A model generated the notes under the pieces. The model was not told where the DNA came from, searched no databases, and saw only the letters and a list, made by a program, of their open reading frames with translations. A program made the position numbers and the translations under genes. A DNA stretch of 20,000 nucleotides. Source: an uncultured virus (IMG/VR IMGVR_UViG_3300008624_000002) (lineage: Duplodnaviria; Heunggongvirae; Uroviricota; Caudoviricetes). The first letter of the stretch is position 1; every line of letters starts with the position of its first letter. The stretch is taken from the IMG/VR virus record IMGVR_UViG_3300008624_000002; one strand, given 5' to 3'. Below, one piece after another: positions 7,502 through 20,000 of this stretch.

Positions 7502-7534
7502 ATGGTACTAAAAAGTGAGGCCCATTGTCAACCC
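7502..7534 (-). promoter_or_regulatory. Early promoter TTGACA-N18-TACCAT
   Basis: -35 at 7526-7531 and -10 at 7502-7507; 24/25-nt identity with 19161-19185. Confidence 0.8.
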
Positions 7535-7785
7535 TTTTGTTCAAGATAACCGAGAACTGCTTTGCGTTCTAAGTCCGTGAAACTACTAACATCTTTGAAT
7601 CTTGCCCATGGTGTTCCGAATGTAACCATCTTATTACCTGCTGTCACAGCGGCGTTCCATAACAAATCATCCTTTGGATATAACTCATTCTTCTCGCATA
7701 AAGTTATTAATTCTCTACCCATATCGACTATTTTCTTTGTTGCTGGGCTATCTCCATAATAAGAAAACTGCTTAATTTTTTGCAC
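7528..7785 (-). CDS. Hypothetical protein
   Basis: GTG start with AAGGAG SD, downstream of the promoter at 7818-7847. Confidence 0.7.
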   Translation of the reverse strand: MQKIKQFSYYGDSPATKKIVDMGRELITLCEKNELYPKDDLLWNAAVTAGNKMVTFGTPWARFKDVSSFTDLERKAVLGYLEQKG

Positions 7786-8459: not shown

Positions 8460-9057
8460 ATTCGTCTTTAACTTCTTTTTTTAGATTTCTATTCTCTCTG
8501 TATTTAAGAACTTGTTTATGGTTTTGAACTCTCTGATAATTAGCATGTTGTTGTATAGTTATCTCTGGTATTTCTATCTTAGGAAGAGCTGTAATTAGAT
8601 AATGTATTAAACGACAAACATCTAACCAAGCAACACTCGGCAATTCATTATGATTTAACAAGCCTAGGTTGATTGTGGTGAGTTTATATTTCTTATCTGA
8701 GTTGTATGTTAAGTTATTACTGAGATGATTTAGAGATGCCTTCTGAGATGCGTAAAGATATCCTTTAGATATGTTTGGTTGAGATGCACGAGATGAAAAG
8801 TTAATAACGAATTTACTATCATCATCTTCCCATACACGATGAATTATATCTAGAATTTTAATTTGGTCGAAGTCTCTGTGTGCAAAGTTAATAAAAACAT
8901 CAACCTCTTCGAAAGGTTTCCAATCAGTGTTGTGAGATAAGATGTCGTCTATTCTAGGAGTTATAACTTCAATCCAGTTGTCTTCATGTCGAGTACCCTC
9001 CAACATATTTGCAATCTCTTTTGCTAGACCACTACTTCCTGTTATCGCTACTTTCAT
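8434..9057 (-). CDS. Short-chain dehydrogenase/reductase-like NAD(P)-binding protein
   Basis: KVAITGSSGLA glycine loop, DVFINFA, VINFSS, catalytic YxxxK (YASQK). Confidence 0.8.
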   Translation of the reverse strand: MKVAITGSSGLAKEIANMLEGTRHEDNWIEVITPRIDDILSHNTDWKPFEEVDVFINFAHRDFDQIKILDIIHRVWEDDDSKFVINFSSRASQPNISKGYLYASQKASLNHLSNNLTYNSDKKYKLTTINLGLLNHNELPSVAWLDVCRLIHYLITALPKIEIPEITIQQHANYQRVQNHKQVLKYRENRNLKKEVKDEYEYWIEES

Positions 9058-9952
9058 AATATTCTTTGATTAAATCAAACGATGGTTTACCAAACAGTGA
9101 ACCATCTACACTACATTTATTACAAGGTGAATGTGAACGGTCACCTTTCATCAATCTCGCTCTAATCTTATTCATTGGTTTACTAAACCATACATCATGC
9201 AAACTCTGTTGTAAGAGATTACCCACAACATGTTCTTTACCCCAATCGTTAGAACAGAACAACACATCTCCATTCCAATCGATAAACATTTTGTAGAAAG
9301 GATAATGACATGGTTTACCTTGTAGAGCTTTGATATCAGATTCTTCTATACCAACCCAATCTATCACACCACTTCTATTGTTTAATATTAAACCATGTTT
9401 CTCAAAGTCACCCCAATGCATACGAAACTTATATTGTTCTTCTCTTATACTAGTTAGCATACTTTCAAAGTGTTGCATCTGTTCTATTCCATCATATAGA
9501 TTAATATAAAGCAAGTCTAATCCTGCTTTGAACAACGACTGTATATACATTTCATTTAGTTTATCACCATTCGTATTACACTCTATCGTTGCTTGTGGGC
9601 AATTAAATCTAAACTCTTTTATTATAGGTATGAATTGTGGATTAAGTAAGTTCTCTCCGAAACCACTAAACGATATCTTGCCAATATAAGAATTTCTTCC
9701 TAACTCTTCTGCGATTATCGTTGCACCCTTAACAGTTAAATGCAAGTTTCTATTTGGATAAACTTTAGGGTCATGTCTCGGACAAAACACACAAGTTCTA
9801 TTGCACAACTCTGTGGTGTTAATCTCAACTGTAAGAATAGAGTCTAAGGGATTTAATAGGTTCTTCTTAGCCCAATGTTTCTTCTCTTGTTCTTTTCTAT
9901 GTTCTAGAAAATCAAATTGGTCAACTGCTGTGACTGGAATATTAGACGGCAT
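9032..9952 (-). CDS. Radical SAM enzyme with C-terminal SPASM/Twitch domain
   Basis: CNRTCVFC (CxxxCxxC), GFGENLLN, NTNG; auxiliary Cys in PCHYPF, GDVLFC.ND, PCNKC. Start uncertain (9952 or 9976). Confidence 0.92.
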   Translation of the reverse strand: MPSNIPVTAVDQFDFLEHRKEQEKKHWAKKNLLNPLDSILTVEINTTELCNRTCVFCPRHDPKVYPNRNLHLTVKGATIIAEELGRNSYIGKISFSGFGENLLNPQFIPIIKEFRFNCPQATIECNTNGDKLNEMYIQSLFKAGLDLLYINLYDGIEQMQHFESMLTSIREEQYKFRMHWGDFEKHGLILNNRSGVIDWVGIEESDIKALQGKPCHYPFYKMFIDWNGDVLFCSNDWGKEHVVGNLLQQSLHDVWFSKPMNKIRARLMKGDRSHSPCNKCSVDGSLFGKPSFDLIKEYYESSDNRK

Positions 9953-10460
9953 TACAAACCAGGTGTCTTGGAACATCGCCGTTATCTAGTACCACAGTAG
10001 CTTCGTATTCTCCCAATTCGAAGTCGTCTTCTGGTACCATGAACCATTGTGCATCTTCGTCATGATTGAACTCTGTTGACTTAGGGTTCTGCCCTATCTT
10101 TCTCCAATAAACATCGGAAGAATAACTTTTTATTTCTTCTAGTTCTAATTGCATTGGTGCTAATGATAATATGAAACCGTAAGGTCTAACTCGCAGACCC
10201 ATACCATTTGATATTCCGGCTGTATAAATTTTGATTGTCTTGTGTGGTTGGTCTTCTAAGTATCTTGTTCCTAGAATGGTCGACAGTTCTGGACTTAAGT
10301 CGACACGATGATAATCCTTATCAAGAATCCATCCGTATATTGGACTTAAATTATCTTTATAAAGTTCTGATATGGTTACCTTAGAAGTAACCGCCGTCTT
10401 GGATATTATCGGTATCGCCATCATCATCATCAGAATCCTTAGTGTCTGTTGTCTCAGCAC
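9942..10460 (-). CDS. Hypothetical protein; start probably at the Met run ~10421-10430
   Basis: Long ORF filling the gap between neighbours; no family recognised. Confidence 0.65.
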   Translation of the reverse strand: MLRQQTLRILMMMMAIPIISKTAVTSKVTISELYKDNLSPIYGWILDKDYHRVDLSPELSTILGTRYLEDQPHKTIKIYTAGISNGMGLRVRPYGFILSLAPMQLELEEIKSYSSDVYWRKIGQNPKSTEFNHDEDAQWFMVPEDDFELGEYEATVVLDNGDVPRHLVCNAV

Positions 10461-14908: not shown

Positions 14909-15514
14909 TTATTTATCATGCAAAAGTTTTGATTTATCTCTTATACAGTCATAAGGGATTGCAAACTCTTGGTCTTCTGGAACATATAGGTAATTAATAT
15001 GAGAACGATTACAAGTATCAATCGCATCAAATATATTCTCGACAATGGCTTCACCACCTAAATTAAAAGATGTGTTGAATAATATGGGAACGCCAGTGCG
15101 TTCATAGAACCCTTTAATTAAATTATAATAGTTCTTGTTCTGTTCTTCTGTCACTGTCTGCATACGACAGGTGTTGTCTGCATGAACTAATGCAGGTATG
15201 TCTTTGTGTGCTTTCTCTTTACATTGAATTGCAAATGACATCCAAGGTGATTCTGGTAATTGCAACATCTCAAAATATTCGTGTGCATGTTCTAACATTA
15301 CAGTACAGGCGAAAGGTCGATAAGACTCTCTCATCTTAACTGAATTGACTATAGACTTGGCACCTGGATTTCTAGGGTCAAATAATATAGAACGATTCCC
15401 TAATGCTCTTGGTCCCCATTCGGAATGATTTTGAAAGATTGCAACAATCTGTTCGTTGTCAATGAGTTGGTCGAGACATTCATCCTGTTCTCTTATTATT
15501 TCACTAACTTTCAT
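14909..15514 (-). CDS. Carbamoyltransferase, C-terminal domain (NodU/CmcH family)
   Basis: SEWGPRALGNRSILFDP, K.RE.YRPFA, VH.D.TCR.QTV, PILFNTSFNLGGE. Confidence 0.93.
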   Translation of the reverse strand: MKVSEIIREQDECLDQLIDNEQIVAIFQNHSEWGPRALGNRSILFDPRNPGAKSIVNSVKMRESYRPFACTVMLEHAHEYFEMLQLPESPWMSFAIQCKEKAHKDIPALVHADNTCRMQTVTEEQNKNYYNLIKGFYERTGVPILFNTSFNLGGEAIVENIFDAIDTCNRSHINYLYVPEDQEFAIPYDCIRDKSKLLHDK

Positions 15515-16691
15515 TTTGAATATTTCTCCAATAGTCTAATGCACACCCGACTGCTGTACCACCATCGTGTGGTATAGGGTCAACAAAGAATTGATGTTCA
15601 GGAAATGCTTGTAGATATTTGTAGTTGTTCGTACAGTTTAAAGAATACCCTCCAGATAGAACAATGTTCTTGCAATCTGGAATCATATCGACTGCCTTCT
15701 GTATGACCTGCGTTGCGTGGAACAATGAATCGTGTTCGAGACGATTGGCTGTTGTGTGTTTAGACCAGACATTCTGTACGACTTTACCGTAAGACGCCAT
15801 ACCCATAACCTTACCTGCAGCTCTGCCTTGGTCATCACACCCGAGTGCGTAAGACATATTACTAAAGTTCATACCCATACTAGGCATAGAAGTAAACACT
15901 GACTCGACACCATCGATGATATGTGTTTCGTCTTCATAACAAACACAAGAGTCTTCACCCCAATTCTCAAAGAGGCGCATCGACAAGTCATTGACCAATC
16001 GATGATTTGAATAGCGTTTGTATAATGGGCGAATCGGTGTCGCATCGTCTTTCTTATAATGCCAGATACATTCTATTTCTTGATAGTTAGGCCACTCATC
16101 AAAGTGACTCATGAACCCTCCACCATCCCATGTAATCACAATGGCTTCGTCATAAGGGCTTAAGTGTGAACCACACACTGCATGGAAGTAATGGTGTTCT
16201 TGTTTAAAGTCATACTTTTCAACTTGACATTGTTCGGCCAGTGCCTGATTAATCAAGTCGTCTTCATTCCTGTGTTCACTATTCGCAAGCGATGTGATGA
16301 TGTCGAAGTCTTTTATGTCGTTTGGATATTTGTCTCTGATTTCTAGAAGTCTCGCCATACTCAATTGTTGTGCTGAGAAGTCTTTAATCATCTCTCCTTG
16401 CAAGATACGATCCTTATAGACTCTCTTACTCACATTAATATTAAACGCTCTCCTATCGAAACTGGCGAATGCCAGATAGTCAGGTTTGTGGAGTTGTTTG
16501 TGGTCGATACACAATAGACCGAAAGAATCCCACTCTTCTTCCACCGATGTGACTCTATCGGAGGGTGACCAGTATTTACTTCTGCGACTGCGTTCTTCTT
16601 CGAAGACATCAACGAGTTCTCCGTCTTCTAAGACGGCGACTGCTGTGTCGTGAGATGTGTTGATTCCGAGGACTGTTTTCACTTCACTCAT
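15504..16691 (-). CDS. Carbamoyltransferase, N-terminal Kae1-like domain
   Basis: LGIN.SHD, EEER..R.K, HHYFHA, TWDGGG, GKVMGMASYG, LSGG..LNC..N, P..HDGG.A.G.A. Confidence 0.92.
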   Translation of the reverse strand: MSEVKTVLGINTSHDTAVAVLEDGELVDVFEEERSRRSKYWSPSDRVTSVEEEWDSFGLLCIDHKQLHKPDYLAFASFDRRAFNINVSKRVYKDRILQGEMIKDFSAQQLSMARLLEIRDKYPNDIKDFDIITSLANSEHRNEDDLINQALAEQCQVEKYDFKQEHHYFHAVCGSHLSPYDEAIVITWDGGGFMSHFDEWPNYQEIECIWHYKKDDATPIRPLYKRYSNHRLVNDLSMRLFENWGEDSCVCYEDETHIIDGVESVFTSMPSMGMNFSNMSYALGCDDQGRAAGKVMGMASYGKVVQNVWSKHTTANRLEHDSLFHATQVIQKAVDMIPDCKNIVLSGGYSLNCTNNYKYLQAFPEHQFFVDPIPHDGGTAVGCALDYWRNIQNES

Positions 16692-16705
16692 AATATAATT
16701 TTACC

Positions 16706-16879
16706 TCATGGATTTATATATTCTTTTTCCAGTTGTTCAGTCGTCACCAGTTTACGCTCTAACATATCGAACACCATATCTCGTTGTCCTTTTTCTCTGC
16801 CGTCTTTCTGGCCCCATAAGAATGAAACTGTTGACATGACTGTGATGAACACCACATGTATTAATAGTAATGTTTCCAT
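16706..16879 (-). CDS. 57-aa membrane-anchored protein
   Basis: METLLLIHVVFITVMSTVSFLWGQKDGREKG...; preceded by CTAAATA-N5-ATG. Confidence 0.65.
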   Translation of the reverse strand: METLLLIHVVFITVMSTVSFLWGQKDGREKGQRDMVFDMLERKLVTTEQLEKEYINP

Positions 16880-16887
16880 GTTAGTAT

Positions 16888-17070
16888 TTAGTCACGATAA
16901 AAAGGCCAGCGAATTTTAAATGGAAGTTTCCAATTCACATTGTAGCGAATCTTCTCTGTCCAGAACCAATGTATGGTCATCGCTAAGACGAACCACATAC
17001 CGATACTGAATAACCATTTGAATGTCCAGCCTAATACTGTGTAGGGTAATAAAATAAAATCTTCAATCAT
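16888..17070 (-). CDS. 60-aa Trp-rich membrane protein
   Basis: Hydrophobic stretch followed by a basic tail; AAGGA SD-like sequence upstream. Confidence 0.6.
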   Translation of the reverse strand: MIEDFILLPYTVLGWTFKWLFSIGMWFVLAMTIHWFWTEKIRYNVNWKLPFKIRWPFYRD

Positions 17071-17134
17071 AAGTCTTTGGGTCAGTCCTTAAATAAGAAC
17101 CGATGTATAAAAATAATTCGTGTAATGATAACAT
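17063..17134 (-). CDS. 23-aa micro-ORF
   Basis: MLSLHELFLYIGSYLRTDPKTYD; ATAAATA-N5-ATG; stop overlaps the next gene start. Confidence 0.4.
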   Translation of the reverse strand: MLSLHELFLYIGSYLRTDPKTYD

Positions 17135-17256
17135 AATAATATTTATCTGGCGGGAGGGATTGCACACAACTATCGTGTTATAAAATTGTGGATTTTGTGA
17201 TATTTAATCCCTTTGCCCCTAGCCCGAGTTCTTTTCCAAACCCCTATTATTAGTCC

Positions 17257-17295
17257 AGTATACACTAGGTCGGTCCTTTTCGTCTAGTGGTTTTT
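17257..17295 (-). promoter_or_regulatory. Promoter AAAAACCAC-TAGACG-N18-TATACT
   Basis: -35 at 17281-17286 and -10 at 17257-17262. Confidence 0.65.
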
Positions 17296-17319
17296 GTGAA
17301 TATATGTAATGTGAAAAGA

Positions 17320-17385
17320 TTATTTCGTACTGCATTTAATATAATATAATCCGATGTGATACCAGAATGTACTTAGATAAGACAT
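17320..17385 (-). CDS. 21-aa micro-ORF
   Basis: MSYLSTFWYHIGLYYIKCSTK; TAATG coupling with the upstream gene. Confidence 0.35.
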   Translation of the reverse strand: MSYLSTFWYHIGLYYIKCSTK

Positions 17386-17840
17386 TAATTTTGCCTCTGT
17401 GACTTAAGAACTCCATATCCAGAAGTCGATTCAATTTCTTTAACTCTCTGTTGTGCTTGTCGCTTGAGTCTGTTGCGTTGCCGTGCAGCCTTGTTCGCTG
17501 CTGTCCATTCTGCTTGATGTTTCTCAATGTATTTGTCGCAACCGTCACGCAACGATTCCAAAAATTTAATATAGCGCTTCTTCTGAGGCTTCGTCATGAA
17601 TGAGTACCCTTCAAGATAATCTGGCTCATCGGAACAAACTTCTGCTAACAGACCATCCCAAGAAGGTCGCATCAGAACAACAAGTTTCTTTTTCATCTTC
17701 AATTGTTCCAAATAATTCTCAATCTTGAAATTAGACTTATAGTTATTATCCATAAACAAGTCTAACTGATACTCAACTTCACCTAAGGCCTCATTCACCT
17801 TATTGTGCATTGCCAGTTGTATTTTATTCATAATAAACAT
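17385..17840 (-). CDS. Conserved T4-like phage hypothetical protein (helical, basic C-terminus)
   Basis: D.DYLEGYSFMTK.QKK.Y..FL motif. Confidence 0.7.
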   Translation of the reverse strand: MFIMNKIQLAMHNKVNEALGEVEYQLDLFMDNNYKSNFKIENYLEQLKMKKKLVVLMRPSWDGLLAEVCSDEPDYLEGYSFMTKPQKKRYIKFLESLRDGCDKYIEKHQAEWTAANKAARQRNRLKRQAQQRVKEIESTSGYGVLKSQRQN

Positions 17841-17846
17841 TATATA

Positions 17847-18143
17847 TCATAAAAAAGATTTAAACAGACCAGACAAGAGTATCATACCACCCACTGCATT
17901 GAGTAGAATAAGGGCTCTGTCCTTCCATAAGAGAGACACTCCCAACCATCCGAAGACCCCAATCGTGCTGAACCATAAGTCATATATCTGATACTGAACC
18001 TCTCCTGTCGCTCGCATCGCCATCGCAATGACTATAACCAGTGAAGAGAACCACTTTAAGTACCACGCAATAGACTCCTTAAGCCTATTCTTCTTCTCCT
18101 TATCTGTTTCAAAGACTGTGTAAGGGGGATAATCCTCATCCAT
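17847..18143 (-). CDS. Three-TM membrane protein (DUF6552-like)
   Basis: WYLKW.SS...., DLW.S.IG..GWL.VSLLW.DRALI.LN; GGAG SD before MDEDY. Confidence 0.75.
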   Translation of the reverse strand: MDEDYPPYTVFETDKEKKNRLKESIAWYLKWFSSLVIVIAMAMRATGEVQYQIYDLWFSTIGVFGWLGVSLLWKDRALILLNAVGGMILLSGLFKSFL

Positions 18144-18276
18144 CAATATCTTTCTCCCAAAATAGGGGAATATATTTGTTTGCTCTGCGTTCAGCCACCA
18201 TATTTGCAGTGACATACGCAAATAAACCTGCGAATACAGTAAAAAATACCATAAAAAAAGTTTCTAACCCGCTCAT
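18136..18276 (-). CDS. 46-aa single-TM protein
   Basis: MSGLETFFMVFFTVFAGLFAYVTANMVAERRANKYIPLFWEKDIDG; ATGA coupling. Confidence 0.65.
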   Translation of the reverse strand: MSGLETFFMVFFTVFAGLFAYVTANMVAERRANKYIPLFWEKDIDG

Positions 18277-18356
18277 AGTACGCCTAAAGCGACCAAGCCA
18301 ACAAGAACAAACTCATCAAGTATCATAATACCTACTAATATTTTCGTCATACTCAT
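18273..18356 (-). CDS. 27-aa hydrophobic peptide
   Basis: MSMTKILVGIMILDEFVLVGLVALGVL; GGAG SD 7 nt upstream. Confidence 0.6.
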   Translation of the reverse strand: MSMTKILVGIMILDEFVLVGLVALGVL

Positions 18357-18384
18357 TATATTTCTCCAAAAAAAATTTTTATCT

Positions 18385-18676
18385 CATCTCTATGGACATC
18401 CCGATGCCTTAACATCAGTGGACCAACGCTCAAATTCTCAGCTGGACTGTTTGCTTCGCCCACATAGAGCGCCAGACTATCGCTTAGAGCGAATCCTAGC
18501 GCTTCTAAGACGCTTTGATACTCTTAGAGACCATCTATGTCTTATGCGAGCATCTCAGCAGCGCAGAGTGGCGCCGGCGTTTTCATTCCGGCGCATGGAT
18601 GTTCGGACATCAACCTCTGATACTTTCACATATGCATGATATACTATAAGGCCCTATCAGATGACCCCTTTAACAT
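18385..18676 (-). ncRNA. Putative ~290-nt highly structured ncRNA or long 5' leader
   Basis: Starts just after promoter 18682-18711; GC-rich; no credible minus-strand ORF; at least 8 nested/adjacent stems with G-U pairs favouring the minus strand; followed by A5/U9. Confidence 0.65.
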
Positions 18677-18681
18677 ACTCC

Positions 18682-18715
18682 ATTATACTACAATGGACGC
18701 ACTTTTGTCTAGTGG
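18682..18715 (-). promoter_or_regulatory. Promoter CCAC-TAGACA-N18-TATAAT
   Basis: -35 at 18706-18711; consensus -10 at 18682-18687. Confidence 0.8.
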
Positions 18716-19044
18716 AAAACATTCACTTCGCCTTCAATCACTATGTAATCTATCTCTATGTTGCCTTCGATGAGGTCTCTTCCTGCCTCACCCCTACTCT
18801 CAAGGCTCTCGCACATATACTCCCAACACCTATTGATATAAGGCCCCTTGACGGTGGCCAACTGCATCTCTTTCGCATTGAGTGTTATCTCTATAGGGTA
18901 ACCAGTGGCGATGTGCGTACCTAACAACTGGTTCTGCCTAAAGTGAATGTCTAAACCACTAGTAGGAGAACTGGCTGTTAAACGATTACGCTGTCTTACT
19001 CCTACTGGTGGAAGCTCACTTTTGACTGGTGGCCCACTACTCAT
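18709..19044 (-). CDS. Hypothetical early protein
   Basis: Start reassigned to MSSGPP (ATGA overlap with the upstream peptide). Confidence 0.6.
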   Translation of the reverse strand: MSSGPPVKSELPPVGVRQRNRLTASSPTSGLDIHFRQNQLLGTHIATGYPIEITLNAKEMQLATVKGPYINRCWEYMCESLESRGEAGRDLIEGNIEIDYIVIEGEVNVFH

Positions 19045-19145
19045 GCTACCAACCCCACGAGCATTGGGAGGCCAATACATACTGCAACTATTGGTAGTAG
19101 TACATTGACGACTGGCCCTTGGCTGTTTAAAATTCTATTCATCAT
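19041..19145 (-). CDS. 34-aa single-TM peptide, probably leaderless
   Basis: MMNRILNSQGPVVNVLLPIVAVCIGLPMLVGLVA; ATG 7 nt after the -10 box. Confidence 0.55.
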   Translation of the reverse strand: MMNRILNSQGPVVNVLLPIVAVCIGLPMLVGLVA

Positions 19146-19152
19146 GGTGGCC

Positions 19153-19185
19153 AGCTTAACAAAAAGTGAGACCCATTGTCAACCC
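19153..19185 (-). promoter_or_regulatory. Early promoter TTGACA-N18-TAAGCT
   Basis: -35 at 19177-19182 and -10 at 19153-19158; near-identical to 7510-7534. Confidence 0.75.
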
Positions 19186-19518
19186 CTATGAGACGACTTC
19201 TTCCTCCGCCTGAGATGGACCTGGATGAACCCTAGTCATCATTGGCGCATCCTCTCACCCCTTTCGCCACACCCTGGCCTCTGAAACCCTTATAGGTAGT
19301 GGGTCGCTTCGAAAACCCTTGACAAACTCTCTCAATTTATACATAGTCCTGGATCTCTCAACACACTCACGCTTCATCAAAATATTCAGCGCTCCTCTCT
19401 CAGACATAAATATGATTATTATATCACACTATGTCACACAATTACACACAATATATTAACATGCCACATAGACATACTCACAATATATTCGAAACCCTTA
19501 TGGATAGGGGGTTTTAGA
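19186..19518. other. Non-coding strand-switch region with GAAACCCTT repeats and AC-rich tract
   Basis: GAAACCCTTAT at 19283 and 19491, GAAAACCCTT at 19311; CACACAAT repeats ~19435-19452; flanking genes diverge. Confidence 0.5.
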
Positions 19519-20000
19519 GTGGGTGAGAGACAAACTATACACAACATAGGTGGTATCACCCTACATGAAGCATCCTTTAGTGGTTCTCTATACGGTAAAC
19601 TATACACAATTGATGACTATCTTACAGACGCTGAGATGGAACAATTAGCGCCTAAGGTGTCTATGGACCACATATATGATAAGAGTGATATCTACCCTAA
19701 TGTACGGTTGTGGGAGAATCAGGTATGGGATTGTGCGTTTGATAAGACTAAGGTGTTGTGGGACCATTGGGATAGGATAGCGCAAGTGTCTTCGGATGCA
19801 GATATACCTTACCCTTCTCATACTCGTTATGAGTATAATATAGCGGAACCAGCGTATCTTCGGGAGCGTTTGCAGGCGTCTCCGGCCCATATGAAGTTAT
19901 ATGAACCTCATACGGATTATGGTGGGAAGGCGTTGACGATTATAGTCCCTATAGCACCAGGTGTCTGCGAACCAACTCGTTTTCATGGTCTAAATGGAAC
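19519..20000 (+). CDS. 2OG-Fe(II) oxygenase-like protein, truncated by window end
   Basis: Translated by hand: frame open to the edge from GTG 19519 (AGGGGG upstream); YTIDDYL...YEPHTD..GKALTIIV (HxD motif). Absent from the ORF track because it has no stop. Confidence 0.7.
   Translation, partial: MGERQTIHNIGGITLHEASFSGSLYGKLYTIDDYLTDAEMEQLAPKVSMDHIYDKSDIYPNVRLWENQVWDCAFDKTKVLWDHWDRIAQVSSDADIPYPSHTRYEYNIAEPAYLRERLQASPAHMKLYEPHTDYGGKALTIIVPIAPGVCEPTRFHGLNG

Follow-up and report, generated by a model that had tools for sequence, protein, structure and literature searches.

T4-like marine phages are among the most abundant viruses of the sea, and the control of their early genes is poorly understood; to our knowledge, very few structured regulatory RNAs have come from them. 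Marine bacteria and phages carry orphan motifs that include the glnA and Downstream-peptide glutamine riboswitches, manA, wcaG, and PhotoRC. The put RNA of phage HK022 is a cis-acting antiterminator made of tandem hairpins behind a strong early promoter, hok and tisB are type I toxin mRNAs with structured 5' leaders, and the intergenic DNA of phages often harbours known small ribozymes. One paper (PMC2864571) deals with structured orphan RNA motifs and candidate riboswitches from marine bacteria and phages; another (PMC9004378) reports that pelagimyophage-like phages have, behind an early promoter, a two-piece tmRNA together with a glnA-like element. A two-piece tmRNA is annotated in phage Mosig.

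Here we analyse a 20,000-nt stretch of DNA (the window) from IMG/VR record IMGVR_UViG_3300008624_000002. Its source is an uncultured marine T4-like myovirus; gp32 of the window is 52-54% identical to that of cyanophages, OM43 phage Melnitz, and Pelagibacter phage Mosig, and a second viral record (G001) is 99% identical to the window from position 19070 downwards. The minus strand encodes nearly all genes and also, at 18569..18663, a conserved three-hairpin RNA module. We give about an even chance to the reading of this module as a structured leader element, new and acting in cis, that belongs to an early operon in uncultured marine T4-like phages.

A sigma-70-type promoter, TAGACA-N18-TATAAT (18682..18711, minus strand), precedes the module; it has 11/12 matches and ranks best of 16 promoter-like sites in 16500-20000. 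It is kept in relatives, the -35 box being unchanged in 10/10 aligned relatives and the -10 box reading TATAAT in 8/10. A transcript initiated there would start near 18675. Minus-strand ORFs between 18675 and 18368 do not exceed 35 aa, and the GC content of the region is 0.44-0.45 versus 0.34-0.43 nearby. An earlier note on this DNA, made from the letters alone, had reported this promoter and an ORF-free region behind it, both of which hold, and had called the region GC-rich, which is true only mildly. The ORF-free stretch runs to an A5U8 tract (18380-18368; previously read as A5U9), and the tract together with the following GGAG, the ribosome binding site of the next ORF, occupies 18364..18380; a Shine-Dalgarno sequence and a 27-aa ORF (18356-18273) thus follow the tract, as had been claimed. 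The A/T tract is kept in all window-type relatives and also in L011 and L206. No terminator-like site was found in a scan of the minus strand from 18700 to 16500, and no G+C-rich hairpin lies on the minus strand near 18368-18400 that could make an intrinsic terminator of A5U8; in all window-type sequences, the nearest hairpin is at least 20 nt ahead of the tract. Public sequencing runs gave one 151-nt contig over 18468-18618, probably from a DNA run, and three RNA runs had no match.

The upstream gene encodes protein A, with 72 codons conserved in alignments and a TAG stop (18709..18927, minus strand); 38 loci carry a related gene, and its stop codon shares bases with the -35 box. The open frame continues to 19080, and conservation is confined to 18709..18927; the conserved ORF ending at 18709 is, on this evidence from alignments, a real gene. 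The 51 further upstream codons (18928-19080, minus strand) exceed those of all relatives and encode a P/G/S-rich, unconserved extension; translation probably begins at TTG 18927, and the DNA ahead of it would be untranslated. Protein A has no Pfam or PHROG family, and neither does ORF B, the small protein introduced below. As a candidate RNA-binding partner of the module, protein A gave no lead: its predicted structure (pLDDT 79.8) had no PDB match with E <3.7.

Some other features of the window may be recorded here. A 30-nt repeat, 90% alike between its copies at 19161-19190 and 7510-7539 (minus strand), contains GGTTGACAATGGG-N-CTCACTTTTT and recurs one to two times in the related loci L007, L008, L010, and L012; in this phage group it is probably an early-promoter region that has been conserved. 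The stretch 19278-19587, a divergent region at the gene strand switch with ORFs of 50 and 57 aa only, has conserved DNA counterparts in L007, L008, and L010 (nhmmer E 1e-13 to 3e-21). The carbamoyltransferase at 14909-16691 (minus strand) consists of two overlapping ORFs of 395 and 201 aa, compared with a single 481-aa gene in HTVC008M, and may be a split gene or a frameshift. Finally, a 314-aa ORF at 9032-9976 (minus strand) adjoins a 207-aa ORF resembling a short-chain dehydrogenase and contains a CxxxCxxC motif of the kind typical of radical SAM enzymes.

The module occurs once in the window, where covariance model R1 gives it 106 bits. Its first hairpin, P1 (18616..18661, minus strand), pairs 18655-18661 with 18616-18622; 14 distinct complementary strand pairs were seen in 29 sequences, 98% of cells are paired, and compensatory changes occur in 6/7 pairs. 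The apical loop of P1 (18623-18654) contains conserved GCCU and GAAAG together with an optional AU-rich hairpin. P2 (18598..18611, minus strand) is a GAUG/CAUC stem of 18598-18601 with 18608-18611 around the loop UCCGAA; it is 98% paired with compensatory changes in three of its four pairs, and 24/24 sequences have the loop N-C-C/G/U-G-A-A. P3 (18571..18594, minus strand) is a 7-bp G+C-rich stem of 18571-18577 with 18588-18594 that carries the conserved 10-nt loop AAUGAAAACG; it is 91% paired, and all seven pairs have undergone compensatory changes. Conserved unpaired positions are found as (A/G)CCU and GAAAG in the P1 loop, as AGGUU after P1, as N-C-C-G-A-A in the P2 loop, and as AAUGAAAACG in the P3 loop.

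Model R1 was built from the 18 base pairs of P1, P2, and P3 and has at least 25 matches, 24 of which are distinct. In the model-fitted alignment of these 24 sequences, which is biased toward the model, 95.4% of cells are paired and both-sided changes occur in 16/18 pairs; the covariation score is 0.532, compared with 0.143 for shuffles (0/500 reach the observed score) and at most 0.198 for slid partners. When 14 window-type RNAs were aligned independently with MAFFT, row L252 being incomplete, pairing came to 99% for P1, 96% for P2, and 88% for P3. Folding of the module alone is not significant (z -1.52). The G-U pairs in the stems are compatible with the minus strand alone, and at 18525 a natural change from A to G likewise preserves its pair, as G-U, on that strand only, in line with the strand that the G-U pairs had previously been said to favour. 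All stems listed in the earlier note can be drawn at their coordinates and are contained in minimum-energy folds; two of them, 18616-18622/18655-18661 and 18571-18577/18588-18594, covary strongly and are our P1 and P3, and of a third, 18598-18602/18607-18611, the part 18598-18601/18608-18611 covaries as P2. The search for covariation among relatives that had been suggested as a check is therefore positive for P1-P3, with 16/18 pairs and none of 500 shuffles.

The (A/G)CCU of the P1 loop may pair with AGGU, which directly follows P1, to give a pseudoknot of 3-4 bp, and at least three of its pairs are possible in 23/24 sequences when the alignment is read by eye. Because both partners are nearly invariant, we put this probable pairing forward as a proposal and not as a finding. 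The module as a whole combines covarying stems with conserved unpaired nucleotides around which they are arranged, which is what distinguishes a riboswitch aptamer. It is possible, if well short of an even chance, that the module serves as sensor in a phage regulatory RNA of a new class, whether a riboswitch-like aptamer or a specific site for a phage protein, and that the ~310-nt RNA of the window, with its invariant 3' block, became a functional ncRNA after the loss of an ORF.

No known RNA family accounts for the element. The Rfam 15 cmscan that had been proposed returned 0 matches at the gathering threshold over the whole window, and at E up to 10 over 18100-18900 and 18600-19700 it returned noise only, the best E being 0.85 for a microRNA model; on ten related loci, Rfam found one unrelated tRNA only. 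ARAGORN found 0 tRNA or tmRNA genes in the window, which together with Rfam bears out the opinion that the RNA is neither. A literature search, with limited coverage of subscription journals, gave no description of the element. Of the proposal that this is an undescribed phage RNA, what stands is a covarying element without an Rfam, ARAGORN, or isolate match; the large sponge or scaffold form that had been envisaged is less favoured. The compactness of the module, its many conserved unpaired nucleotides, and its intergenic place in phage DNA would suit a ribozyme, of a class not yet described, whose self-cleavage cuts polycistronic phage transcripts, but no Rfam 15 ribozyme matches at E up to 10 and three separate hairpins are unlike any known class; we hold this reading to be very unlikely.

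Relatives were gathered via the DUF6552 protein encoded downstream, via conserved DNA patterns, and via the protein A gene. Conservation at the DNA level covers 18336-18922 in marine viral contigs, and the promoter and the three 5' stems are kept in about 35 related marine viral and metagenomic loci among the matches listed. The model matches 8/80 DUF6552 loci, 12/38 protein-A loci, and, among the matches listed, 18/119 metagenome candidates and 0/120 candidate stretches from bacterial and archaeal genomes. Divergent members are under-sampled because the search patterns demanded the conserved letters of the P2 and P3 loops. Five viral records of 53-140 kb each hold one strong copy. Isolate phages gave no DNA match to the window stretch, to a window-type RNA, or to a minimal form, and the cultured relatives that carry DUF6552 (HTVC008M, Mosig, and C48C1) have no leader at that gene. 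The module is missing from 26/38 protein-A loci, where a gene comes directly after the promoter. Likewise, the model has no match in 72/80 DUF6552 loci, which makes the module dispensable; one of these loci, L013, has the module by eye and is missed by the model on account of a 68-nt insertion in the P1 loop. The 3' block of L013, described below for the window, is of the L199 type, and the locus has no ORF B.

Three arrangements were seen. Window-type RNAs are 250-311 nt long; the leader RNA of the window itself, taken from the presumed start near 18675 to the A/U tract, is ~310 nt. A minimal form of ~75 nt, which has no AU-rich hairpin in the P1 loop, occurs in two further gene contexts, one represented by L029, L034, L249, L220, L321, and L327 and the other by L333, L250, L259, L344, L317, and L275. 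Minimal forms start 10-15 nt after the stop codon of the upstream gene with no promoter between, and they end 10-20 nt, mostly U-rich, before the GGAG and AUG of a small ORF. Their P3 has 6-7 G-C pairs with U-rich sequence within 0-4 nt after it, and a possible pairing with the Shine-Dalgarno sequence (UCCAU/AUGGA) appears in the minimum-energy fold of 1/6 minimal forms, with nothing comparable in the window. In the third arrangement, L199, L011, and L206 have ORF B (63-65 aa) after the module, which lies ~25-30 nt ahead of the ORF B ribosome site, and then the 3' block and A/T tract; a distant ORF B relative of 59 aa is present in L192 and L189 (E ~1e-5). Proteins of this 59-65 aa family end in ...VVELRRVT, and the gene is present or absent in otherwise similar loci. 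In L012 and L011, we also observed an extra segment between P2 and P3, UUCUGAUAG, which resembles the 5' strand of P1 in the window and pairs with a conserved CU(G/A)UUAGA after P3, enclosing P3 in a longer helix.

The minimal forms bear on two further readings. That the element governs RNA processing, stability, or termination, by 5'-end protection, as a cleavage mark, or through P3 as a weak terminator or insulator, would accord with tandem hairpins, which are typical of such elements, with a location close to the promoter in most loci, and with the U-rich sequence within 0-4 nt of P3 in the minimal form. Window-type and ORF-B loci, however, have no U tract after P3, a 10-nt P3 loop is long for a terminator, and the conservation of the P1, P2, and P3 loops exceeds what a stabiliser or terminator needs; we regard this reading as distinctly improbable. 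The other is that the RNA, as an R-loop transcript, primes a T4-style replication origin in which the A/T tract is the unwinding element. A strong promoter followed by untranslated DNA and an A5T8 tract, with a gene strand switch ~800 bp upstream, near 19500, is the arrangement that such a primer would have, but an R-loop primer has no need of stem covariation, the minimal forms have no promoter, and the cumulative GC skew makes no turn at the element. Originally suggested in the earlier note, this origin gained nothing in support, and it is extremely improbable.

Beyond P3, the relatives share no common fold. The whole 321 nt folds barely better than shuffles (z -1.56 for the minus strand and -2.04 for the plus strand), and RNAalifold finds almost nothing in the way of a common fold. 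The variable middle region (18458..18568, minus strand) holds a long arm (18462-18540) and the invariant AGCGUCUUAGAA (18503-18514). The arm, taken with its flanks (18458-18545), reaches z -2.94, a value attained by 1/200 shuffles, and is missing from all 13 other window-type relatives; to judge from these alignments, it is an insertion of the window lineage. The previously described ~290-nt multibranch RNA, with its arm closed by 18462-18468/18534-18540, therefore does not survive as the conserved unit, which is a 5' module of 75-95 nt with no global fold kept around it.

The 3' block, GCAAACAGUCC ... GGUCCACUGAUGUUAAGGCAUCGGGAU (18398..18454, minus strand), is a second element beside the module. 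It is near-invariant in 13 window-type sequences and shows little covariation; 27 nt of it hardly vary among sequences that diverge by 25-35% elsewhere. A hairpin of 18413-18418 with 18401-18406, which had been listed among the stems, can be drawn with the loop UUAAGG, presenting UAAGG. Its outer part shows no variation in the MAFFT alignment, and pairing in its inner part (18413-18416/18403-18406) is 79%; L244 alone is doubly compensated there, and about half of the sequences have a mismatch or a broken helix. A hairpin around CUUAGA is 81% paired with zero compensatory changes. An AUG follows the UAAGG loop by 7 nt in 9/13 window-type sequences and opens mini-ORFs of 2-16 codons that are unconserved, and the spacing from the 3' block to the T tract varies by 20-23 nt. 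A helix closing the 5' end on the 3' block was considered, but the RNAalifold versions were weak, differed between two alignments, and fit some sequences only; pairing of the block with the P2 or P3 loops (CCGA/UCGG, AACG/CGUU) was also considered and dropped. Long-range pairings of the 3' block are not claimed because all partners are invariant and L008 shows no covariation.

The RNA could also be non-functional, as decaying untranslated remains of the ORF B gene, or it could be protein-coding. Five relatives have ORF B in exactly the gap that separates module and 3' block, plus-strand stop-free runs of 72-90 codons occur in 7/13 sequences, and most window-type sequences leave a minus-strand frame, GCA AAC AGU ..., open across the 3' block. 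Compensatory changes in 16/18 pairs are, however, unexpected for such DNA, and the window-type RNAs, at 250-311 nt, differ by indels that are not multiples of three. The peptide of the 3' block is not conserved, being interrupted by an in-frame stop in L173 and radically altered in L244 and L301, and the longest antisense ORF is 21-47 aa in 8/13 relatives. Codon conservation of the plus-strand ORF 18418-18639, which had been named in advance as evidence against a structured RNA, was accordingly not found. Nor is there a trace of ORF B in the window-type RNAs (the window and 13 others), where the best tblastn E is 0.69, while these RNAs retain the flanks of its place, including the invariant AGCGUCUUAGAA. 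Decay or coding is thus a highly doubtful explanation.

The same data make a better case for a stand-alone or processed trans-acting ncRNA (a sponge, decoy, anti-defence RNA, or guide), of which the ~310-nt product would be cleaved in the A/U tract. Such an RNA would have its own strong promoter and a single copy per genome record, ~310 nt would pass without an ORF, the 27-nt 3' block would stay near-invariant amid 25-35% divergence, and both RNA parts would be retained when ORF B is lost, all of which is observed. The absence of an ORF and the conservation of the 3' block make this a serious rival for the window-type form. Overall, we hold it to be unlikely; it has no terminator of its own, no global fold is kept beyond P1-P3, no target has been identified, and the minimal forms lie between cistrons with neither a promoter nor a 3' block. 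A cis-acting leader is favoured over a stand-alone sponge or scaffold by the intergenic position directly upstream of a ribosome binding site.

No coherent association of the module with particular genes emerges. The downstream operon of the window (17847..18356, minus strand) comprises the 27-aa ORF (18273-18356), a 46-aa ORF (18136-18276), and a DUF6552 membrane protein (17847-18143; Pfam E 7e-17), the ATG of which overlaps the preceding stop codon (ATGA). As called mechanically, the DUF6552 ORF begins at TTG 18221; relatives and the Pfam match fit ATG 18143. In all window-type loci, the next ORF lies 10-45 nt past the A/T tract on the same strand, and some 200 nt separate the window's module from the next ribosome site. 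The 27-aa peptide, however, follows the RNA in only 2/14 window-type loci (the window and L008), with acidic 80-aa proteins or different small ORFs in its place elsewhere. Since the next ORFs differ between loci, the module is not a dedicated partner of the 27-aa peptide; the idea of a leader controlling the hydrophobic peptides is therefore upheld as to a leader in general and not as to those peptides. In 13 loci, DUF6552 is encoded on the strand of the module, 0.3-1.3 kb downstream; three of these loci (L276, L180, and L317) were found independently of DUF6552. The downstream ORFs are diverse, fall into no family except DUF6552, and point to no shared pathway. The promoter scan revealed no antisense RNA gene or notable antisense promoter.

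We return to the cis-acting leader as the preferred reading. A leader or intercistronic element acting in cis is indicated because the module has no terminator of its own and, in the minimal and ORF-B forms, lies directly upstream of a ribosome binding site; one copy per genome record argues in the same direction, and the conserved loops point to specific recognition. The module would begin ~12 nt after the presumed start of a near-consensus early promoter and form the 5' end of an untranslated leader of ~310 nt, which would read without a terminator into the operon of small membrane proteins (27 aa, 46 aa, and DUF6552). The folded module may be recognised by a factor (a phage protein, a host protein, or a small ligand), and this recognition would set the translation, stability, or read-through of the ORF or ORFs behind it. 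We infer transcription from TAGACA-N18-TATAAT, action in cis, and the nature of the factor. Against a cis-acting leader are the lack of a coherent gene association and of a clear expression platform, the dispensability of the module in many loci, and the weak folding of the single sequence; a long RNA without an ORF but with a conserved 3' block would equally suit an RNA acting on its own.

The comparative support for the element is strong and its boundaries are clear, and the 75-nt minimal form suits direct biochemistry; nature also supplies variants that either have or lack an embedded small ORF, ready to be compared. Were the module a sensor for a ligand or a phage protein, it would provide a handle on the timing of small membrane proteins including DUF6552. 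Were it merely a stabilising structure, it would still be a new family for RNA databases and would end the mis-calling of ORFs here.

Set against the described systems, the window resembles hok and tisB in having a long folded leader before tiny hydrophobic peptides and differs from them in that the 27-aa peptide occurs in 2/14 window-type loci and that no antisense RNA gene or promoter was seen. Like the HK022 put RNA, the module may be read as tandem hairpins behind an early promoter that act in cis in a small phage group; unlike put, it has three hairpins with conserved loops, and its minimal forms lie far from promoters. As no downstream terminators are predicted in the window, put-type antitermination would share with it only the position behind the promoter. 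With the pelagimyophage tmRNA reported in PMC9004378, the window RNA shares a length of ~300 nt, a place directly behind an early promoter, and related marine myoviruses as hosts of the gene, but it has no ARAGORN or Rfam match to tmRNA or glnA, it occupies another place in the genome, and comparison with the Mosig tmRNA locus showed no nucleotide likeness. The marine orphan motifs differ from the module in that the latter is three separate hairpins and not a junction, has no Rfam 15 match, and precedes genes with no common function; no ligand can be proposed for it. The module is like these motifs in being short and marine-only, in its covarying stems and conserved loops, and in its place in 5' leaders that often precede small ORFs, and among structured cis-regulatory or orphan RNA motifs we place it as a new family.
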